A DNA stretch of 63,606 nt, counting the filler, from a bacterium (GTDB lineage Bacteria; JAMORN01), in assembly GCA_027063545.1 (NCBI GenBank). It is 15 parts of 15 records of this genome, joined end to end, with 100 filler letters (N's around TTAATTAATTAA, not from the genome) between each part and the next. Parts side by side here need not be neighbours in the genome. Positions count along the whole stretch, not along the records: positions 39,210 to 43,412 come from JAMORN010000230.1; 14 more parts are not named here. One strand, given 5' to 3'. A program made the position numbers and the translations under genes. How positions within the stretch are numbered: the stretch's first letter is position 1; each line of letters starts with the position of its first letter. Under the pieces are notes generated by a model. That model was not told the origin of the DNA. It ran no database searches and saw only the letters and a list, made by a program, of their open reading frames with translations. Shown here piece after piece: positions 35,704 through 44,338 of this stretch.

Positions 35704-37149
35704 ATGTTAAATATTGCTATAATAGATGATGAAATTGGTATTTTAGAGGTCTTAAAAGAATTTATTCAACATGAATATCCTGAGATTAATGTTTATACTT
35801 TTGATCATCCTGAAAAATTTTATGAGATAGCTTCTCAGGTAAAATTTGATCTAGTTTTTCTTGATATAAGATTTGGAAAAGAAGAAAATTTAGGTATAAA
35901 AGTTTTAAAAACAATAAAAAATAAAAATCCTGATATTCAAGTTGTTATAATGACAGCTTATCCTAATTTAGAAACAGCAATACAATCAATAGAATTTAAT
36001 GCATTAGGTTATCTAAAAAAACCTATAGATTTAAATGTTATAAAAGAATATATAGATAAAGTAAAAAGTTATAAAAAAGTGATAAGTTTAATAAATATTA
36101 ATACCATAAATTTAGATTATATTCTTGAAAAAGAAGAAAACTTACCTATGGCGTTATTTGCTTTTTTAGCTTCCTTGAGAGAATATATAACTATTGAAGA
36201 TCTAGTAATAAAAATCTTTGATTTTATCCAAAAAATAACCAAAAATTCTGTTCTATCATTAATAATCCATTGGGAAAATATAAATTATATGTTTCTTTAT
36301 GGAATAAAAAAACAAAAATTTTCTATAATTAAAAAGAAAATAGATGAAGTTATTGACACATGGAGTAAAAATTCTAACGATAATTCCATAAAAGATGTAT
36401 TAAAAGAAAAAATATTCCTAGAATCACCGATATATGTAGGAGATCTTTCTTCAGATAAAATTCATAATATAAATATTCCTCTTATTACCCCCAATAATAA
36501 CGGAGCTCTAGGATATCTTGTTGTATTTTCTGGAAAACCTATTGCTTCAAAACATAAAGATATATTATTTATGATTGGTGAACTTATAACCCCTATAATC
36601 CTAAATGCTCTCTTATATAAAAAACTACAGATAATTTCTTTAACTGATCCTCTTACAAAAATATATAATCACACTGCTATTTTAAACATACTGGAAAGGG
36701 AATTGGAAAGATTAGAAAGGTATAATGGTGCCATAGCTGTAGCTATGATTGATATAGATAACTTTAAAAAATTAAATGACACATATGGACATTTATTCGG
36801 TGATCAAGTTTTAATAGAAGTAGCAAATACACTAAAGGCTAGCATTAGAAAAACAGATCATGTTGGAAGATATGGTGGGGAAGAATTTTTAGTTATATTA
36901 TATGGAAAGAAAAACTCATTTACCAGAGATGTTGCTCATAAAGTTTTAGAGAGACTAAGAGAAAACGTTGCCAATCTCAAATTTTACACCTTTCATCAAG
37001 TAAAAGTTACTATATCTGTAGGGTATACATTTATAGATAATAAAACAAAAACAAACAATATCTCTCAAATAATTAAAACAGCCGACAAAGCTCTATATGA
37101 AGCAAAAAATACAGGAAAAAATAAGGTTATTTATTATAAATTTTCTTAA
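35704..37149 (+). CDS. Response-regulator diguanylate cyclase (REC-GAF-like-GGDEF)
   Basis: REC (IIDDE, FLDIR, TAY, KP), TDPLT, DIDNFK..ND.YGH..GD, I-site RKTD, intact GGEEF. Confidence 0.94.
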   Translation: MLNIAIIDDEIGILEVLKEFIQHEYPEINVYTFDHPEKFYEIASQVKFDLVFLDIRFGKEENLGIKVLKTIKNKNPDIQVVIMTAYPNLETAIQSIEFNALGYLKKPIDLNVIKEYIDKVKSYKKVISLININTINLDYILEKEENLPMALFAFLASLREYITIEDLVIKIFDFIQKITKNSVLSLIIHWENINYMFLYGIKKQKFSIIKKKIDEVIDTWSKNSNDNSIKDVLKEKIFLESPIYVGDLSSDKIHNINIPLITPNNNGALGYLVVFSGKPIASKHKDILFMIGELITPIILNALLYKKLQIISLTDPLTKIYNHTAILNILERELERLERYNGAIAVAMIDIDNFKKLNDTYGHLFGDQVLIEVANTLKASIRKTDHVGRYGGEEFLVILYGKKNSFTRDVAHKVLERLRENVANLKFYTFHQVKVTISVGYTFIDNKTKTNNISQIIKTADKALYEAKNTGKNKVIYYKFS

Positions 37150-39109
37150 ACTCTTCAGCTATATTCTCATGGGTAAATCCATAAATACCGGCCATTTTCT
37201 TATAATTTGCACTAACACCAAATCTATCAACACCAATAATCTTACCATCAAGACCTACATACTTATACCACATAATACTTCTAGATGCCTCTACAGCTAA
37301 TCTTACTCTTATGTTAGAAGGTAAAACAGATTCTTTATATTCCTCACATTGTTCATCAAAAACTTCCATAGATACCATGTTAACAACCCTAACATTTATT
37401 CCTTCTTCTTTTAATTTTAATGCGGCCATTATAGAAGGATATACCTCAGAACCTGATGCTATTATTATACCATCTAAAGTCTTTCCTTCATCCTCTTTTA
37501 AAATTATATAACCTCCCTTTAAAGCCTCTTTATATGAGGCTAAATTATATTTTTCCCTATTTAATATAGGTACATTCTGTCTTGTTGTAATAATTAATGT
37601 AGGTCTATTTCTTGTTTTTATCCCATAATACATACAAACTAAAGTTTCATTATAATCTGCGGGTCTAAATACCTGAATATTAGGTATTAATCTAAACTGA
37701 TGAATATGTTCTACTGGTTGATGACTTGGCCCATCCTCACCAACATAAACAGAGTCATGGGAAAAATAAAACTGAACTCCTAAATTCATCATTGATGTCA
37801 TTCTAACTGCTGGTATTAGATAATTAGTAAAAACAAAAAATGTTCCTCCAAATGTTAAAAAGCCTCCATAAAGCTCTATCCCATTTAATATGGCAGCCAT
37901 TGCATGCTCTCTTATCCCAAACTGAATATATCTTGCTCTAAAATTATCTTTTGCTAATATTGGTTCATTATCAAAAATAGCTCCTGAAGAAGATCCTAAA
38001 TCTGCCGCTCCGCCTACTAAATTTTTTATCTTTTCTTTAAAGATTGATAACCCATATTTTATAGCCCTTCTCGTTGCTATTTCTTTTTCTTCTTTTATAT
38101 ACTCAAAATCATCAAGGCTTATATCGTCTAAATATTTATTAGAGTAAAAATCATTCCATAATCTCCTTAACTCTGGATATTTCTCCGACCATTCATTAAA
38201 CATCTTTTCCCATTTTTTATATTCCTCATCCCAAATATTTCTTCTCTCCTCAAAAAAATCATAAGCCTCTTTAGCTATATAAAAATCCTCTTTTATACCA
38301 AGCTTTTCTTTGGTTAATTTTATATCCTCCTCTCCTAAAGGAGCTCCATGGGAAGCTGGAGATCCCTCTTTAGAAGCAGAATATTTTCCTATTGTTGTAT
38401 GAAGTATTATTAAATGAGGCTTACCTTTTACTTCTAAAGCTTTATTATAAGTCTCTATAATAGCATCATAATTATATCCGTCTGCTTCATCCACATACCA
38501 CCCCTGAGATTCAAACCTCTTTTTTATATCTTCTGTAAAAGTTATATCTGTAGACCCTTCTATAGTAATTCTATTTGAATCATAAAAAACAAATAAATTA
38601 TCTAGTCCTAAATGCCCAGCTAAAGAAGAAGCTTCATATACAACTCCTTCCATCATATCGCCATCACCAGCTATAACAAAAATTTTATTATCTACAATTT
38701 TATAATCATCTCTATTAAATATCTCTGCTTGCATTTTTGAGGCTATAGCCATACCGACAGCATTAGCAAAACCCTGTCCCAATGGACCTGTAGAAGACTC
38801 TATTCCAAGCTTTTGATCTACTTCTGGATGTCCCGGTGTCTTTGAACCTAGTTGCCTAAAATTTATTAATTCTTCCTTGGATAAATTATAACCAGAAAGA
38901 TGAAGAAGAGTATATAAAAGCATAGAACCATGTCCTGCAGATAATATAAATCTATCTCTATTAGGCCATAAAGGTTGTTTAGGATTTATCTTTATTATTT
39001 TTCCATATAATAATGCTCCAAACTCTGCCAAACCTAACACCATTCCAGGATGTCCAGACTTAGCTCTTTCTATAGCATCCATAGCCATTGTTCTTATAGA
39101 TAATGCTAT
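37127..39109 (-). CDS. tkt: Transketolase (few N-terminal residues missing)
   Basis: SGHPG, NRDRFILSAGHGS, TGPLGQG, GDGDMMEG, FGIREHAM, GEDGPSHQP. Confidence 0.97.
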   Translation of the reverse strand: MALSIRTMAMDAIERAKSGHPGMVLGLAEFGALLYGKIIKINPKQPLWPNRDRFILSAGHGSMLLYTLLHLSGYNLSKEELINFRQLGSKTPGHPEVDQKLGIESSTGPLGQGFANAVGMAIASKMQAEIFNRDDYKIVDNKIFVIAGDGDMMEGVVYEASSLAGHLGLDNLFVFYDSNRITIEGSTDITFTEDIKKRFESQGWYVDEADGYNYDAIIETYNKALEVKGKPHLIILHTTIGKYSASKEGSPASHGAPLGEEDIKLTKEKLGIKEDFYIAKEAYDFFEERRNIWDEEYKKWEKMFNEWSEKYPELRRLWNDFYSNKYLDDISLDDFEYIKEEKEIATRRAIKYGLSIFKEKIKNLVGGAADLGSSSGAIFDNEPILAKDNFRARYIQFGIREHAMAAILNGIELYGGFLTFGGTFFVFTNYLIPAVRMTSMMNLGVQFYFSHDSVYVGEDGPSHQPVEHIHQFRLIPNIQVFRPADYNETLVCMYYGIKTRNRPTLIITTRQNVPILNREKYNLASYKEALKGGYIILKEDEGKTLDGIIIASGSEVYPSIMAALKLKEEGINVRVVNMVSMEVFDEQCEEYKESVLPSNIRVRLAVEASRSIMWYKYVGLDGKIIGVDRFGVSANYKKMAGIYGFTHENIAEEFKKIYNK

Positions 39110-39209
39110 NNNNNNNNNNNNNNNNNNNNNNNNNNNNNNNNNNNNNNNNNNNNTTAATTAATTAANNNNNNNNNNNNNNNNNNNNNNNNNNNNNNNNNNN
39201 NNNNNNNNN

Positions 39210-39728
39210 TTAACAGATTTTTTTAGCCTCTTCTATATGAATTATTTTTATGTAGCAGTTAGTGTTGTGTTATATTTATTAATAAAAAAAGATAAAAAGC
39301 ACCTTAGAGAGGTTCTTTTAGGAACAATTTTAATGTATTATATAGGATATTTTTTATATATTTTATTCCCTGCAGCACCTCCTAGATTAGTACTTCATGA
39401 TAAATTTACCCGAGATTTAACAGGAGGTGTGATAACTCATATTCAAAATAAGATAATAATAGATATGGCATCTTCTCGGGGATCTTTTCCAAGTTTACAT
39501 TGCGGAGTAAGTTTGCTCTCGTTAATTTATTCATATAAATATGCAAGGAAACTTTTTTATTTTTTAATTCTGCCTGTAATAATTTTAGTAATTGCTACAA
39601 TTTATTTAAGACATCATTATACTGTAGATATTATAGCAGGATTTATTTTAGCAATTATTGTTTATAAAATAACTCCTATTATTGACAGAAAATATAAAGA
39701 GTTTCAAAAGAAAATTGAAAACTTATAA
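39210..39728 (+). CDS. PAP2-superfamily Aur1/Ipt1-like lipid phosphotransferase (5'-truncated)
   Basis: FPAAPPR, FPSLHCG and LRHHYTVD motifs with TM helices. Confidence 0.8.
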   Translation, partial: LTDFFSLFYMNYFYVAVSVVLYLLIKKDKKHLREVLLGTILMYYIGYFLYILFPAAPPRLVLHDKFTRDLTGGVITHIQNKIIIDMASSRGSFPSLHCGVSLLSLIYSYKYARKLFYFLILPVIILVIATIYLRHHYTVDIIAGFILAIIVYKITPIIDRKYKEFQKKIENL

Positions 39729-39761
39729 AAAAGTTTATTAATTAAAAATATAAAAAATCAA

Positions 39762-39787
39762 CCTCCTCCCTTAAAAAAGAGAGGAGG
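39762..39787. terminator. Hairpin terminator between convergent PAP2 gene and pfk
   Basis: CCTCCTC-C-CTT / AAG-A-GAGGAGG stem with flanking A/T tracts. Confidence 0.7.
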
Positions 39788-39801
39788 CCTTTTAATTTAT
39801 A

Positions 39802-41016
39802 TTAATAGATTCTAATAATCTTATCCTTAACTTCTACTGCTTTTGCTTCAAATTTTTGTGGTTCTCTACCAAAGCAGATACCAACTTGTTCAAATAAAGC
39901 TACTTCTCCGAGCTCAACATATCTTTGTTCAATTTCTTTTTCAACAGGTATATATTTTATTTCTCCACCCACTACATCAACAACACTTACACCATCAATT
40001 CCTTGAAGTAATAAATTAACAGCAGCAGAACCGACCTTAACTCCAAAATTAACATCATAAGCAGATGTGAAACCACTTCTTACTAAGTGAGTTGGTCTAA
40101 TATCTCTTACTTCAGGAGCTTCATATATTCCTTCAACATACATTCCATATTTTTTCATTAATTCTTTTGTTTCAGGATCTTCTTTAAATCTTTTTTGAAT
40201 TTCTTGAGCAACATATTTACCAGCACCTGCTAATTTTTTGTGTCCAAAAGCATCAACTCCAGCAGATTCATCATATAATGGTTCTCCATCAGCCTTTTTC
40301 ATTCCTTCAGCAACTACAATTGTATATGTTCCTGCTCTTACATCACTTTCAGCAATTCTTCTCCAGTATGTTTCTTTAGCATGTTTGTATAATACATCAA
40401 AATCAACAGGTATTTCAGGAATTAATATTGCATCAGCTCCTCCAGCAACACCACCTCTAAAAGCTGTGTGTCCCACATATCTTCCAAATACTTCAATTAC
40501 CATAATTCTATTATGAGTCCTTCCTGTTGTTTGAATATCTCTTACAAATTCAGCAATTCTATTTATAGCAGAATCACCACCTACAGAATAACTTTGTAAA
40601 TCTAAATCCATTGTTTTTGGAGCATGAATTACTCTAAAACCATGATGCTTTAAGTCTGCAACAACACTTCCTGTATCATCACCACCAGAAATTACTAAAG
40701 CATCAATATTGTGCTTTTCAAGTCCTTGTTTAATTCTTTCATATTTATTTTCATCCTTAATCTTTGCAATTTTTACTCTTGAGTGTCCTGCTTCAGAACC
40801 AGCTAAAGCAATATTTACTAAATCAGCTCTTTGTGGATTTAAAACTGTTAATTTTTCCATGTCAACTAAATTGTAAAGACCAGCATACCCATTAGGTATA
40901 ACTACTGCTTCAATCCCTAAATGATTACATGTTTGAGCAACACCATATACCACAGCATTAAGACCTCCACAATCACCACCACTTGTGATAATACCAATTC
41001 TTTTTATTCCACTCAT
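39802..41016 (-). CDS. pfp: PfkA-family phosphofructokinase, probably PPi-dependent
   Basis: TSGGDCGGLN, GGDDT (Asp at the donor-determining site), PKTMDLD, EVFGR, DAFGH. Confidence 0.85.
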   Translation of the reverse strand: MSGIKRIGIITSGGDCGGLNAVVYGVAQTCNHLGIEAVVIPNGYAGLYNLVDMEKLTVLNPQRADLVNIALAGSEAGHSRVKIAKIKDENKYERIKQGLEKHNIDALVISGGDDTGSVVADLKHHGFRVIHAPKTMDLDLQSYSVGGDSAINRIAEFVRDIQTTGRTHNRIMVIEVFGRYVGHTAFRGGVAGGADAILIPEIPVDFDVLYKHAKETYWRRIAESDVRAGTYTIVVAEGMKKADGEPLYDESAGVDAFGHKKLAGAGKYVAQEIQKRFKEDPETKELMKKYGMYVEGIYEAPEVRDIRPTHLVRSGFTSAYDVNFGVKVGSAAVNLLLQGIDGVSVVDVVGGEIKYIPVEKEIEQRYVELGEVALFEQVGICFGREPQKFEAKAVEVKDKIIRIY

Positions 41017-41222
41017 ATTTTCACTCCTTTTTGAGTTTTTAATTTTTACATTTGTTTTAAGTATTCAAAAATAATAATTTTACTTATATTTTCAAAAGAT
41101 AATATTGTTTTTATAATATAAAAGTTAGATTTGTCTAAAAAATTTGGAATTATCTAAAATTTTTATTATATTATAATATTTATAATAAATTAATTGCAAC
41201 TATCACAAAGGAGGAAGATAAA

Positions 41223-43112
41223 ATGGGTCAGAGGGAAGATTTACTTAAGGTACTAAAAGTTAATGAAGAGGTATATAATTTATTAAAAGATGCTAAAAGT
41301 ATTACTATACCAACTTCTAGAGAAGAATTAATAGAGATTGCATTAAATGGTGATTTAAATAATAAACAAGTTGAAATTGCTTATGATGTTCCTGGAAAAG
41401 GTAAGGTTGTTGAAGTAGTTTTAACTAAAGCAAAAAATGGTCTTGTTATTAATTATCCTGAAGTTTATATGAGAAGAAGAGATCCAAATGCTGCAGTTGT
41501 TGGTGATGATAAAATTACAACAAAAGCAAGATTTAAAGAAAGATTTGGAAGGGATTTTTCCGAGGTAAGAAAAGAAACTTTTGAATGGTTGAAAAAGCAA
41601 GATTTAATAGTAGTACCTTTCATTACTATAAAACCTATTGATGGAGGTTATCCTTCTATATATATTGGTCCAAAAAACACAGCAGGGTTTGCTTTAACCT
41701 TTATTGATTTTCAAAATTTTGTTAATTTAGATGAAATGAGAGAATCTTATAAACCATTTATATTTGTGTTTGTGGCTCCAGTATTTAGACATACTCACTT
41801 TGACGGAAAACAAGTAGTTGTTCATAATAGATTAGATGATAGATATGAAATATTTCCATATAATTTGTATCCGGGACCAAGTTCTAAAAAAGGAATATAT
41901 GGGGCGCTACTAGAAATTGGAGAGAGAGAAGGTTGGGTAACTCTTCATGCTGCTGCTGTTAAGGTAAGAACTCATTACGGAAATGTATCTGTTTTTATGC
42001 ATGAGGGTGCTTCTGGTGGTGGAAAAAGTGAGATGAATGAACCTATCCATTATACAGAAGATGGAAGGATTTTAGTTGGAGAGAATATAAAAACAAATGA
42101 AAAGATTTTTATTGATATACCTCAACCATCCAAACTTGTTCCTATATCAGATGATATGACCTTGGCTCATAAAAAAATACAAAAAAATAAAGGAAGACTT
42201 ACAATATATGATGCAGAACAAGCATGGTTTATTAGAATGGATCATATAAGAAGATACGGCACAGATCCATACTTAGAAAGAATGTGTATTCATCCAAAGA
42301 AACCTTTAATATTTGTCAACTTATATACAGTCCCTGATGCAACAGTGTTACCGTGGGAGCATATTGAAGATGAACCAGGAAAACCTTGTCCTAATCCAAG
42401 AGTTGTTTTACCCAAAGATCAACTAGATGACTATGTTAAAGAGCCTATAGAGGTAGATTTCAGAAGTTTTGGTATAAGAACACCCCCAACAACGAAAGAA
42501 AATCCAAATTATGGAATTATTGGATTTTTCCACGTTCTTCCGCCAGCAGTAGCATGGCTTTGGAGACTTGTTGCTCCAAGAGGATTTAACAACCCATCTA
42601 TTGTTGCAGAAGAAGGTCTTAAAAGTGAGGGAATAGGATCTTATGGACCATTTTTAATAGGTGATGAGATAAAACAGGCTGATTTACTTTTAGAACAGTT
42701 TATTAACTATAAAGATACTAAATATATATTAGTTCCAAATCAATATATAGGAGCATGGAAGGTTAGTTTTATGCCTCAATGGATAACAAGAGAATATTTA
42801 GCAAGAAGAGGAAGAGCGTGGTTTGAAAAGGATGAATTAAAACCTACAAAAGGTTCTATACTAGGTTATATACCAAAGATGGTAGAAGTGGAAGGCTTTA
42901 TTATTCCAGAATTTTTATTTGATGTAGGTCTTCAAGAGGAAGTGGGAGAAGAAGTTTATTTTGAAGGACTTGAGCAGCTTGAAAGATTCTTTGCTAAAGA
43001 GTTAAAGAGATTTAATAATCCAAGATTATCTGAGACAGGAAGAAGAATTATAGAGTGTTTTATGGATAAGGGAACTGTTGAAGAGTTTGAGTCAATTATT
43101 CCTTCAGAATAG
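41223..43112 (+). CDS. DUF4914-like protein with PEP-carboxykinase-type catalytic motifs
   Basis: [34 protein letters not shown]-loop, SDD, DAEQAWF, CPNPRV; AAGGAGG RBS. Confidence 0.75.
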
Positions 43113-43412
43113 AACCACAATATTTACAAAATATAGCATCATCATCATGACCTGTCCTTCCACAGGAAGGGCAGGTTTTTTTATTTTTTGAAATTTGCTT
43201 CTTAGTTTCTGATATAACAATTCCAGTAGGAACAGCAATAATCCCATAACCTATAATCATTATGATAGAGGCTAAAAATTGTCCTAAAGGAGTTTGAGGA
43301 GATATATCGCCATATCCAACAGTTGTTAGTGTAACTATTGCCCAGTAGATACTTTTAGGAATAGAAGTAAATCCACTCTTTTCCCCTTCTACTATATACA
43401 TAATAGATCCAA
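43096..43412 (-). CDS. Potassium-channel-type ion transporter, C-terminal part with Zn-ribbon
   Basis: [14 protein letters not shown] selectivity filter; CPSC..CKYCG. Confidence 0.9.
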
Positions 43413-43512
43413 NNNNNNNNNNNNNNNNNNNNNNNNNNNNNNNNNNNNNNNNNNNNTTAATTAATTAANNNNNNNNNNNNNNNNNNNNNNNNNNNNNNNN
43501 NNNNNNNNNNNN

Positions 43513-44338
43513 CCTTTCCTAAATTTTTACCATGATAAATTACCTCAAAAGAACTAAAGCCGTTTTCTATAGTTATATTTTTTGCATATATATCACTAGA
43601 AGATAGAGTAGTAGAATATGTGATTATAGGACTTTCAATATAAGGCAAAATTTCTTGTATTGTAGATTCATCAATACATACTGCTACCTTACCATAAAAA
43701 GGTACTTTATTTGCAAATTCAATAAAAGCCTTCTTTATATTTTCAAAGGAGCCATAACATTCTAAATGATCAGGTTCTATATTGGTTATAATCTCATAAA
43801 TAGGAGATAAATATAGAAAAGATTTATCATATTCATCAGCTTCCATTACTATATAAGGGCTTTCACCCCATCTAGCTCCAGTATTGGTATTTTTTATAAT
43901 ACCACCAACAATTATAGTAGGATCAATATTTGCATCTGTTAATATTTTTCCCAACATATAAGTAGTTGTAGTTTTCCCATGGGTACCTGCTATAGCTATA
44001 CCTTTTTTGGTTCTTGAAAGTTCAGCTAGCATTACAGAACGTTTTATAATAGGTATTCTAAGTTTTTTTGCTTTTATTATTTCTGGATTATTTTCTGGAT
44101 TAACAGCACTTGAATATACCACAACATCAATATCATTTGATATATTATTTTCATGATGACCAATATATATTTTAGCTCCCAGTTTTTCTAAATATTCTAA
44201 AATATTTGTCCTTCTTATATCACTGCCAGAAACTTTATATCCCATTTTTAAAAGAATCTGAGCTATAGGATTCATCCCAGCTCCACCAATACCAACAAAA
44301 TGGAATTTTTCAATTTTATTAAAATAGTTATCTTTCAT
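43513..44338 (-). CDS. murC: UDP-N-acetylmuramate--L-alanine ligase (3'-truncated)
   Basis: HFVGIGGAGM, AGTHGKTTTT, EADEYD, NIEPDHL. Confidence 0.96.

Follow-up and report, generated by a model that had tools for sequence, protein, structure and literature searches.

Among the textbook enzymes at the PEP-pyruvate-oxaloacetate node is phosphoenolpyruvate (PEP) carboxykinase (PEPCK). A 2020 review of this node, in the part consulted, recognises only ATP-, GTP- and pyrophosphate (PPi)-dependent PEPCKs and treats the PPi-type as unrelated to the ATP and GTP types (PMC8100219). We analysed a 63,606-nt stretch of DNA from a bacterial genome assembly (GCA_027063545.1; the whole stretch is called the window below) that holds an open reading frame (ORF) at 41223..43112 (+ strand), whose product of 629 amino acids (aa) belongs to DUF4914 (PF16260). 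A first-pass annotation of the window had seen in this ORF a compact, uncharacterised PEPCK-like enzyme, possibly dependent on PPi and co-regulated with a divergent gene for a PPi-type phosphofructokinase (PFK). With a probability of about 0.5, we predict that the ORF encodes an active enzyme of the PEPCK superfamily, of the PEP/oxaloacetate type, and that its separate family, DUF4914, is a candidate fourth class of PEPCK.

The 629-aa protein matched PF16260 over profile positions 2-612 of 612 with 908.4 bits (cut-off 25.7; E 2.2e-273), which confirms the Pfam membership that the first-pass annotation had left to be checked. PF16260 was the only family reported at E <= 0.01; the ATP-PEPCK family PF01293 was not matched at that threshold, and a precomputed PF01293 match is present on two close relatives of the protein. 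None of the NCBIfam models matched it. An AlphaFold2 model built from a 32-sequence alignment (mean predicted local distance difference test score 92.9, predicted template modelling score 0.91) was compared with the PDB by Foldseek, and the PEPCK fold was matched as had been anticipated: E. coli PEPCK (1AQ2) came up at E 3.6e-23, the PPi-PEPCK 8E1U at E 2e-22 and the GTP types at about 1e-21 to 1e-20. All 50 of the 50 top structural matches listed were PEPCKs, with all three donor classes among them, and the ESM Atlas model of the protein gave template modelling scores of 0.72/0.84 to a PEPCK_ATP cluster. PPi-PEPCK had the top structural Z, 32.4, and also gave the longest alignment, which covered 578 of the 629 residues. 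At the level of the fold the protein is thus a member of the PEPCK superfamily, with the complete two-domain architecture including the N-terminal substrate domain. The same matches place ATP-, GTP- and PPi-PEPCK in one fold, unlike the view taken in the consulted part of the review (PMC8100219).

Sequence comparisons had to be made with the family and not with the single protein to become informative: a single-sequence phmmer search of the PDB gave only a chance match (E 0.14), whereas the family profile reached the ATP-PEPCKs 1J3B (E 2.2e-8), 1YTM (E 4.8e-6), 1II2 (E 1.5e-4) and the E. coli enzyme (E 0.02). In this search, which covered all PDB sequences, neither a GTP- nor a PPi-PEPCK came up at E <= 10. 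When profiles were aligned with each other, hhalign paired DUF4914 with E. coli Pck alone at a probability of 91.9 % (E 7e-7) and with eight ATP-PEPCKs at 98.1 % (E 7.4e-14, 446 columns); three GTP-PEPCKs, an alignment of different depth from the ATP set, gave 85.6 % (E 5.6e-6, 187 columns). Judged by these sequence comparisons, the nearest PEPCK class is the ATP-dependent one.

The seven motifs on which the first-pass annotation had built its case were all located in the 629-aa protein, in the order it gave, with YMRRRDP starting at residue 82, the Lys-pair motif at 216, LHAA at 241, the P-loop motif at 262, ISDD at 308, DAEQAWFIR at 330 and NPRV at 391. The E. coli counterparts that it had quoted are likewise all present at the expected positions of K-12 Pck (NC_000913, b3403): GRSPKDK at 64, YGGEMKKG at 207, MHCS at 231, GLSGTGKT at 248, IGDD at 266, NFEGGCYAK at 280 and NTRV at 331. 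The one-to-one line-up it had drawn between the two series was reproduced by the profile-profile alignment (E 7.4e-14). Its estimate of 40-45 aa inserted between the P-loop and the Asp pair was too high: the spacing from the P-loop Lys to the Asp pair is 42 residues vs 14 in E. coli, so that the net gain is about 28 aa.

To follow each position across the family we used an alignment of 207 members, composed of the 629-aa protein, 119 near matches, 11 distant representatives and 76 ORFs from genome loci. All codon positions given here are on the + strand. R84-R85-R86 (41472..41480) pairs with G64-R65-S66 of the E. coli enzyme in the hhalign alignment, and R84 and R86 are each found in 207/207 members. 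In the profile alignment Y216 and K222-K223 (41868..41891) fall on Y207, K212 and K213 (207/207), H242 (41946..41948) on H232 (206/207) and D310-D311 (42150..42155) on D268-D269 (207/207). The P-loop GASGGGKSE (42006..42032) corresponds to GLSGTGKTT, so that S264, K268 and S269 stand for S250, K254 and T255; S264 and K268, together with E270, occur in every one of the 207 members, and at position 269 there are 204 members with Ser and 3 with Thr. E332 (207/207) and R338 (206/207), within 42216..42236, take the places of E282 and K288, and N391-P392-R393 (42393..42401) those of N331-T332-R333, with N391 and R393 in 207/207. We take R65, Y207, N331 and R333 of E. coli PckA to bind PEP or oxaloacetate and CO2, K213, H232 and D269 to be the Mn2+ ligands, and S250, K254, T255, D268 and K288 to handle the transferred phosphoryl group with Mg2+. 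Those catalytic residues are conserved across the eight ATP-PEPCKs. In the alignments DUF4914 therefore retains the full catalytic set of the superfamily, in order and one-to-one, and it is under strong purifying selection across phyla. E64, R189, E270, P505, G510 and R523 are invariant residues specific to the family, in which an FRHTHF segment is conserved as well.

DUF4914 is a large family. Clustered at 50 % identity, its matches at E <= 1e-3 have 558 representatives; at 90 % identity there are at least 7964 clusters, and species-representative genomes contain at least 592 confirmed loci. The members are spread over Bacillota, Chloroflexota, Spirochaetota, Verrucomicrobiota, Planctomycetota, Bacteroidota, Thermotogota and other phyla. 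Identity of the 629-aa protein to other members is at most 57 % among the matches listed; a metagenome scan with the protein returned relatives at 46-56 % identity, apart from one contig (L097) that is identical to ours, also at 4203 bp. Longer, fused forms of 1102-3145 aa were not found at E <= 1e-5, a negative that is weak evidence. The protein is a typical member of a widespread and uncharacterised family, and the description of it as a compact, uncharacterised PEPCK-like enzyme is borne out, with catalytic equivalents present in 206-207 of 207 members and the family unnamed in the literature searched.

Some carriers have unusual complements of these genes. A DUF4914 copy in a 1.6-Mb genome (G151:C1:1076688-1078554, - strand) contains 16 in-frame stops over two matched pieces (9 TGA, 5 TAG and 2 TAA) and is apparently a decaying pseudogene. 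A 1.7-Mb genome (G189) has two intact paralogues, at C2:34586-36421 and C2:179237-181069 (1071 and 952 bits), and also carries an archaeal-type PEP carboxylase (PF14010). Nine of 47 DUF4914 genomes encode, elsewhere in the genome than DUF4914, a third and divergent PEPCK-like family of about 550-565 aa, exemplified by L090:550-2238 (-), L091:398-2050 (+), L092:400-2088 (+) and L093:528-2186 (-). It scores only 58-68 bits with PF01293, aligns with ATP-PEPCK in hhalign at a probability of 98.4 % (E 8.8e-15), and has INTG among its motifs.

To characterise the genomic surroundings of the family, ORFs were called up to +/-10 kb around 80 genome loci and clustered, and neighbours were identified from the Pfam matches of cluster representatives. 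A DUF4914 ORF was obtained from 76 loci and from the window; simple ORF calling recovered none at L044, L067, L069 and L078, which stand outside the counts, and since many loci end near DUF4914 the counts are lower bounds. The most frequent neighbour was mpsC (PF10057), found in 20/76 loci from five phyla and lying directly upstream on the same strand in 14 of them. It was followed by purE in 15/76, DUF3360 in 8/76 (directly downstream in 6), a divergent AraC-PocR regulator in 7/76, in Verrucomicrobiota and Planctomycetota, adenylate kinase in 5/76, purC and sua5/tsaC in 4/76 each and purK in 2/76. The order purE-purM-purD-DUF4914 recurred in 6/76 loci, from related Lachnospiraceae. Bicarbonate or CO2 is a substrate of PurK, PurE and Sua5. 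The recurrent partners of DUF4914 in other genomes are thus CO2- and bicarbonate-handling genes (mpsC, purE, purK, purC, sua5) together with adenylate kinase, and the contig studied here carries none of them. Directly 3' of mpsC we found a conserved leader, consisting of GGAAGAC, about 10-40 nt, RTWAGCC and then a hairpin with a T run, which precedes DUF4914, purE or DUF3360 (for example L043:8541-8583, L076:484-525, L026:2728-2775 and L056:3430-3471); its strict pattern occurs in 9/120 loci. In the window the pattern occurs 0 times, the upstream side of the contig being taken up by the PFK gene instead, and no homologue of mpsC (by tblastn), purE, DUF3360, adenylate kinase or the AraC-PocR regulator was found there.

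Three further observations concern these neighbourhoods. In five Lacrimispora/Hungatella-like loci (L035, L046, L049, L052 and L079) the order purE-purM-purD-DUF4914 is continued by BMC-domain shell proteins and a PduV/EutP GTPase, and these downstream genes form a microcompartment locus. In two Luteolibacter loci (L032 and L039) the adenylate kinase two genes downstream of DUF4914 is 389 aa long, compared with 221-237 aa elsewhere, which could reflect a fusion or an ORF called too long. DUF4914 was also considered as a substitute for PurK, and this was rejected, as purK adjoins DUF4914 in 2 loci.

On the reading that DUF4914 is an active PEPCK-superfamily enzyme, the protein would pass a phosphoryl group between its P-loop-bound donor and the enolate that arises when an oxaloacetate-like acid is decarboxylated; in reverse, it would carboxylate the enolate that an enol phosphate releases. 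The likely reaction would be PEP + CO2 + acceptor <-> oxaloacetate + donor. Because the gene lies elsewhere in operons with CO2- or bicarbonate-consuming enzymes, the direction is probably the CO2-fixing, anaplerotic one, which suggests a role when inorganic carbon is limiting. As to the phosphoryl donor, a nucleotide is somewhat more likely than PPi, given the sequence kinship with the ATP class, the conserved equivalent of K288, a conserved motif near the C terminus where the adenine pocket would lie, and the operon partner adenylate kinase; PPi keeps some chance as donor, since the pocket is rebuilt and PPi-PEPCK is the slightly better match in structure. A bolder version can be put forward only tentatively, and we regard it as somewhat doubtful: DUF4914 would be a true fourth class of PEPCK, compact, interconverting PEP + CO2 and oxaloacetate, with a donor pocket rebuilt perhaps for PPi or polyphosphate, serving many anaerobes as a CO2-responsive anaplerotic enzyme and filling, as the only PEPCK-type enzyme of Thermotoga maritima, the gap at its PEP-pyruvate-oxaloacetate node. 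T. maritima was the only DUF4914 carrier among 14 control genomes, and its genome gave no match to PF01293, PF00821, PF00311 or PF14010. In the consulted part of a published table, no pepck is listed for Thermotoga neapolitana (PMC3561251).

A number of observations weigh against the assignment as an active PEP/oxaloacetate enzyme. That the mapped residues cluster in one pocket is something we infer from homology and the alignments, and the family's own invariants E64, R189, E270 and R523 could mean a different or larger substrate. NTGW, R449 and T455, which presumably form the adenine pocket of ATP-PEPCK, are invariant in eight PckA sequences, and their letters are unconserved in DUF4914 in either alignment register: hhalign sets them against PNQ(Y/H)...W520...L526, and the profile search uses another register. 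Canonical PEPCK is common among carriers. In 47 of them PF01293 was strong in 9 and PF00821 in 16, a union of 24/47, with one more holding a fragment, so that the absence of a canonical pck, which the first-pass annotation had suggested looking for, does not hold for carriers in general. In 201 genomes sampled evenly from the phylum of one carrier, 17 of which carry DUF4914 (one as a pseudogene), an ATP- or GTP-PEPCK was present in 6/17 carriers vs 87/184 non-carriers (Fisher p 0.45); no complementary distribution was seen in this sample, and DUF4914 does not replace canonical PEPCK. A PYC_OADA-domain protein occurs in T. maritima and in 5/5 PEPCK-less carriers examined, so that another route to or from oxaloacetate may exist in these organisms. 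The purine and t6A neighbours (t6A being N6-threonylcarbamoyladenosine) fit any CO2-dependent reaction, beyond the carboxylation of PEP. Finally, no paper naming the family, as DUF4914 or PF16260, was found in the literature searched.

The gene next to DUF4914 in the window (39802..41016, - strand) encodes a 6-phosphofructokinase of 404 aa (Pfam PFK, PF00365, E 5.8e-60). Aligned by BLASTP with E. coli PfkA, it has GGDD-T (GGDD at residues 111-114) in place of GGDG-S and PKT in place of PGT. SGGDD (40675..40689, -) thereby places Asp at PfkA position 104, and APKTMDLD (40600..40623, -) places Lys at position 124, beside the catalytic T-x-D-x-D. The PPi-type GGDD noticed in the first-pass annotation is therefore real and is accompanied by PKT. 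In the parts of the sources consulted, Asp104 and Lys124 are associated with PPi dependence (PMC3608648), and such residue rules are in use, with their limits (PMC6543838). The signature is common to 120/120 closest relatives (65-70 % identity, 401-439 aa), which are annotated merely as "6-phosphofructokinase" where named at all. The protein fell below every NCBIfam cut-off (NF010675, 114 bits vs 273; NF041103, 89 vs 550; TIGR02477, 37 vs 588), its best model being the mixed ATP/PPi subfamily TIGR02483 (206 bits vs a cut-off of 430), and the nearest solved structures by sequence are ATP-PFKs (E 1e-31 to 1e-34), with the PPi-PFK 3K2Q at 9e-17. PPi dependence of this PFK is a reasonable prediction from the residue signature; because of the scores below the NCBIfam cut-offs and the closer solved ATP-PFKs, it stays a prediction.

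Does the pairing of the two genes form a module? The two ORFs and the 206-bp gap between them are as the first-pass annotation described. Its expectation of a recurrent linkage to sugar-phosphate genes failed: a PFK homologue was found near DUF4914 in 0/76 other genome loci (up to +/-10 kb, E <= 1e-4) and a transketolase homologue in 1/76 (L020). Of 23 metagenome loci searched (L098-L120), 22 remained with the identical L097 left out, and neither gene was found in any of them (0/22; up to +/-6 kb, E <= 1e-6). The sole other copy of the DUF4914-PFK pair is the one on L097, and the other metagenome relatives compared are 46-56 % identical. The adjacency looks like a one-off of this lineage with nothing reliable to tell about the function of the enzyme, and no conserved module emerges from the loci compared. 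Because no linkage to sugar-phosphate genes recurs, the reading as a PPi module is unsupported. For this window the useful result is the negative one, that the PPi-module idea goes back to a single, non-recurrent adjacency in a 4.2-kb contig.

The layout of the contig points the same way. The window is a pseudo-molecule of contigs of about 3.9-4.3 kb in roughly descending length, whose joints consist of 44 N, TTAATTAATTAA and another 44 N; 14 such artificial spacers occur, for example at 39110-39209 and 43413-43512. The contig carrying both genes spans 39210..43412 (4203 bp), with an artificial spacer on both flanks, so the claim that the pair shares a contig is right for PFK and DUF4914 and does not extend to the wider surroundings. 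The divergent intergenic region between the two starts (41017..41222) is AT-rich and holds only low-complexity AT-rich repeats, with no shared operator-like feature standing out; promoter-like sites in it are not enriched over shuffles (19 vs 22.5 +/- 4.9). Good ribosome-binding sites precede both start codons, a GGAGG 8 nt 5' of the DUF4914 ATG (41210-41214, +) and a GGAG 7 nt upstream of the PFK start. When the window was compared with Rfam at gathering scores, two tRNAs were the sole matches; neither a leader nor a riboswitch came up near the genes. A consensus scan marked a terminator-like hairpin with a T run just 3' of the PFK stop (39760..39789, -; 13-pair stem, 6 GC pairs) and another 37 nt past the DUF4914 stop (43149..43177, +; 13-pair stem, 7 GC pairs). 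Because each gene has a terminator-like hairpin of its own, the two look like separate, diverging single-gene units, contrary to the co-regulation that had been proposed.

Other genes of the contig are convergent with these two. A PAP2-superfamily membrane phosphatase-like gene (39237..39728, +; Pfam PAP2_3, E 9.7e-23) faces the PFK gene, and a K+-channel-like ORF with a pore domain and a zinc ribbon (43096..43401, -; Pfam Ion_trans_2, E 2.8e-16) faces DUF4914, overlapping its 3' end by 17 nt. The 5' part of the latter ORF was probably lost at the contig end (43412), and the hairpin at 43149-43177 sits within its coding sequence. A transketolase gene (37127..39088), a GGDEF regulator and mur genes are on other contigs and therefore are not real neighbours, as artificial spacers intervene. 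The murC ORF (43457..44338) runs into a spacer and is artefactually joined.

The fold and the phosphoryl chemistry could also be those of a carboxykinase or kinase with another substrate, an enol-phosphate, a 2-oxo acid or a carboxylate, used in a CO2-dependent biosynthesis such as that of purines or t6A, with a canonical PEPCK taking care of PEP and oxaloacetate. The coexistence of both enzymes in 24/47 carriers and the lack of a complementary distribution are in keeping with this, as are the family-specific invariants E64, R189, E270 and R523, the FRHTHF segment, the net 28-aa insertion after the P-loop, and neighbours (purE, purK, purC, purM/purD, sua5) that are not genes of the tricarboxylic acid cycle or gluconeogenesis. 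The equivalents of R65, Y207, N331 and R333 are nevertheless all invariant, and because these are the residues for the C4 acid and CO2 a very similar substrate can be argued; purK beside DUF4914 in 2 loci leaves no place for a PurK substitute, and no fusion points to a candidate substrate, longer forms not being found at E <= 1e-5. Overall we consider a different substrate unlikely.

The proposal of a compact PPi-dependent PEPCK, co-regulated with the divergent PPi-PFK in a PPi-linked central-carbon module, can draw on the Asp104/Lys124 signature of the adjacent PFK, on the PPi-PEPCK having the highest structural Z (32.4, 578/629 residues aligned), on the unconserved ATP-type adenine motif and on T. 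maritima, a DUF4914 carrier that also has an H+-translocating pyrophosphatase. It is made improbable by the occurrence of PFK near DUF4914 in just 0/76 genome and 0/22 metagenome loci, by the separate terminator-like hairpins with no shared operator-like feature, and by the family profile, which reaches ATP-PEPCKs at 2e-8 and no PPi-PEPCK at E <= 10; nor is there a relative of 1102-3145 aa at E <= 1e-5, and adenylate kinase as a recurrent operon partner hints at adenine nucleotides. The pyrophosphatase is not positively associated with DUF4914 in the 201 genomes, where it occurs in 11/17 carriers vs 155/184 non-carriers (p 0.086) and where, being near-ubiquitous (166/201), it gives the comparison little power. 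The PPi dependence suggested for DUF4914 in the first-pass annotation is thus not upheld. A regulatory protein is a further alternative. HPr kinase shares the C-terminal P-loop domain of PEPCK, and a regulatory kinase or phosphorylase of that kind, or a catalytically silent sensor of C4 acids or CO2, would suit a gene that recurs 3' of the small gene mpsC and its conserved terminator-forming leader in a regulon-like manner. To our knowledge HPr kinase lacks the Mn-site and substrate-site residues of PEPCK, which are invariant in DUF4914; the whole two-domain fold with its N-terminal substrate domain is present, the 50/50 top structural matches listed are PEPCKs, and a silent sensor would not be expected to conserve all catalytic residues so strictly. 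A regulatory role therefore seems very improbable.

Should DUF4914 prove to be an active carboxykinase, a step that fixes or releases CO2 is missing from the reconstructed metabolism of many anaerobes, among them Thermotoga, cellulolytic clostridia, spirochaetes, Anaerolineae and Verrucomicrobiota, and a new enzyme class would be available for the production of C4 acids.

Set beside the described enzymes, the two genes of this contig each stand near a known class. The PFK shares GGDD and PKT with the PPi-PFKs that have Asp104 and Lys124, and fails the NCBIfam models for PPi-PFK. For the DUF4914 protein, the match to GTP-PEPCK (EC 4.1.1.32, PF00821/PF17297; rat, M. tuberculosis, C. glutamicum) is weaker than that to the ATP class by both measures, and the P-loop is of the PSACGKTN type in the three GTP-PEPCK sequences aligned as against GASGGGKSE in DUF4914. 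PPi-PEPCK (EC 4.1.1.38; P. freudenreichii 8E1U, entry 6K31) has about 1100 residues, compared with 629 here; the structural core matches, and neither the length, nor the extra domains of 8E1U/6K31, nor sequence kinship (at E <= 10 with the family profile) is found in the DUF4914 protein. The nearest class is ATP-PEPCK (PckA, EC 4.1.1.49, PF01293; E. coli 1AQ2/2PXZ, T. thermophilus 1J3B/2PC9), with 14-17 % identity in structural alignments. DUF4914 differs from it in being about 90 residues longer and in having, where ATP-PEPCK has its adenine region NTGW/R449/T455, the invariant series P505-N-Q...G510...R523. What it shares with ATP-PEPCK are the equivalents of R65, Y207, K212, K213, H232, S250, K254, T255, D268, D269, E282, K288 (as Arg), N331 and R333.

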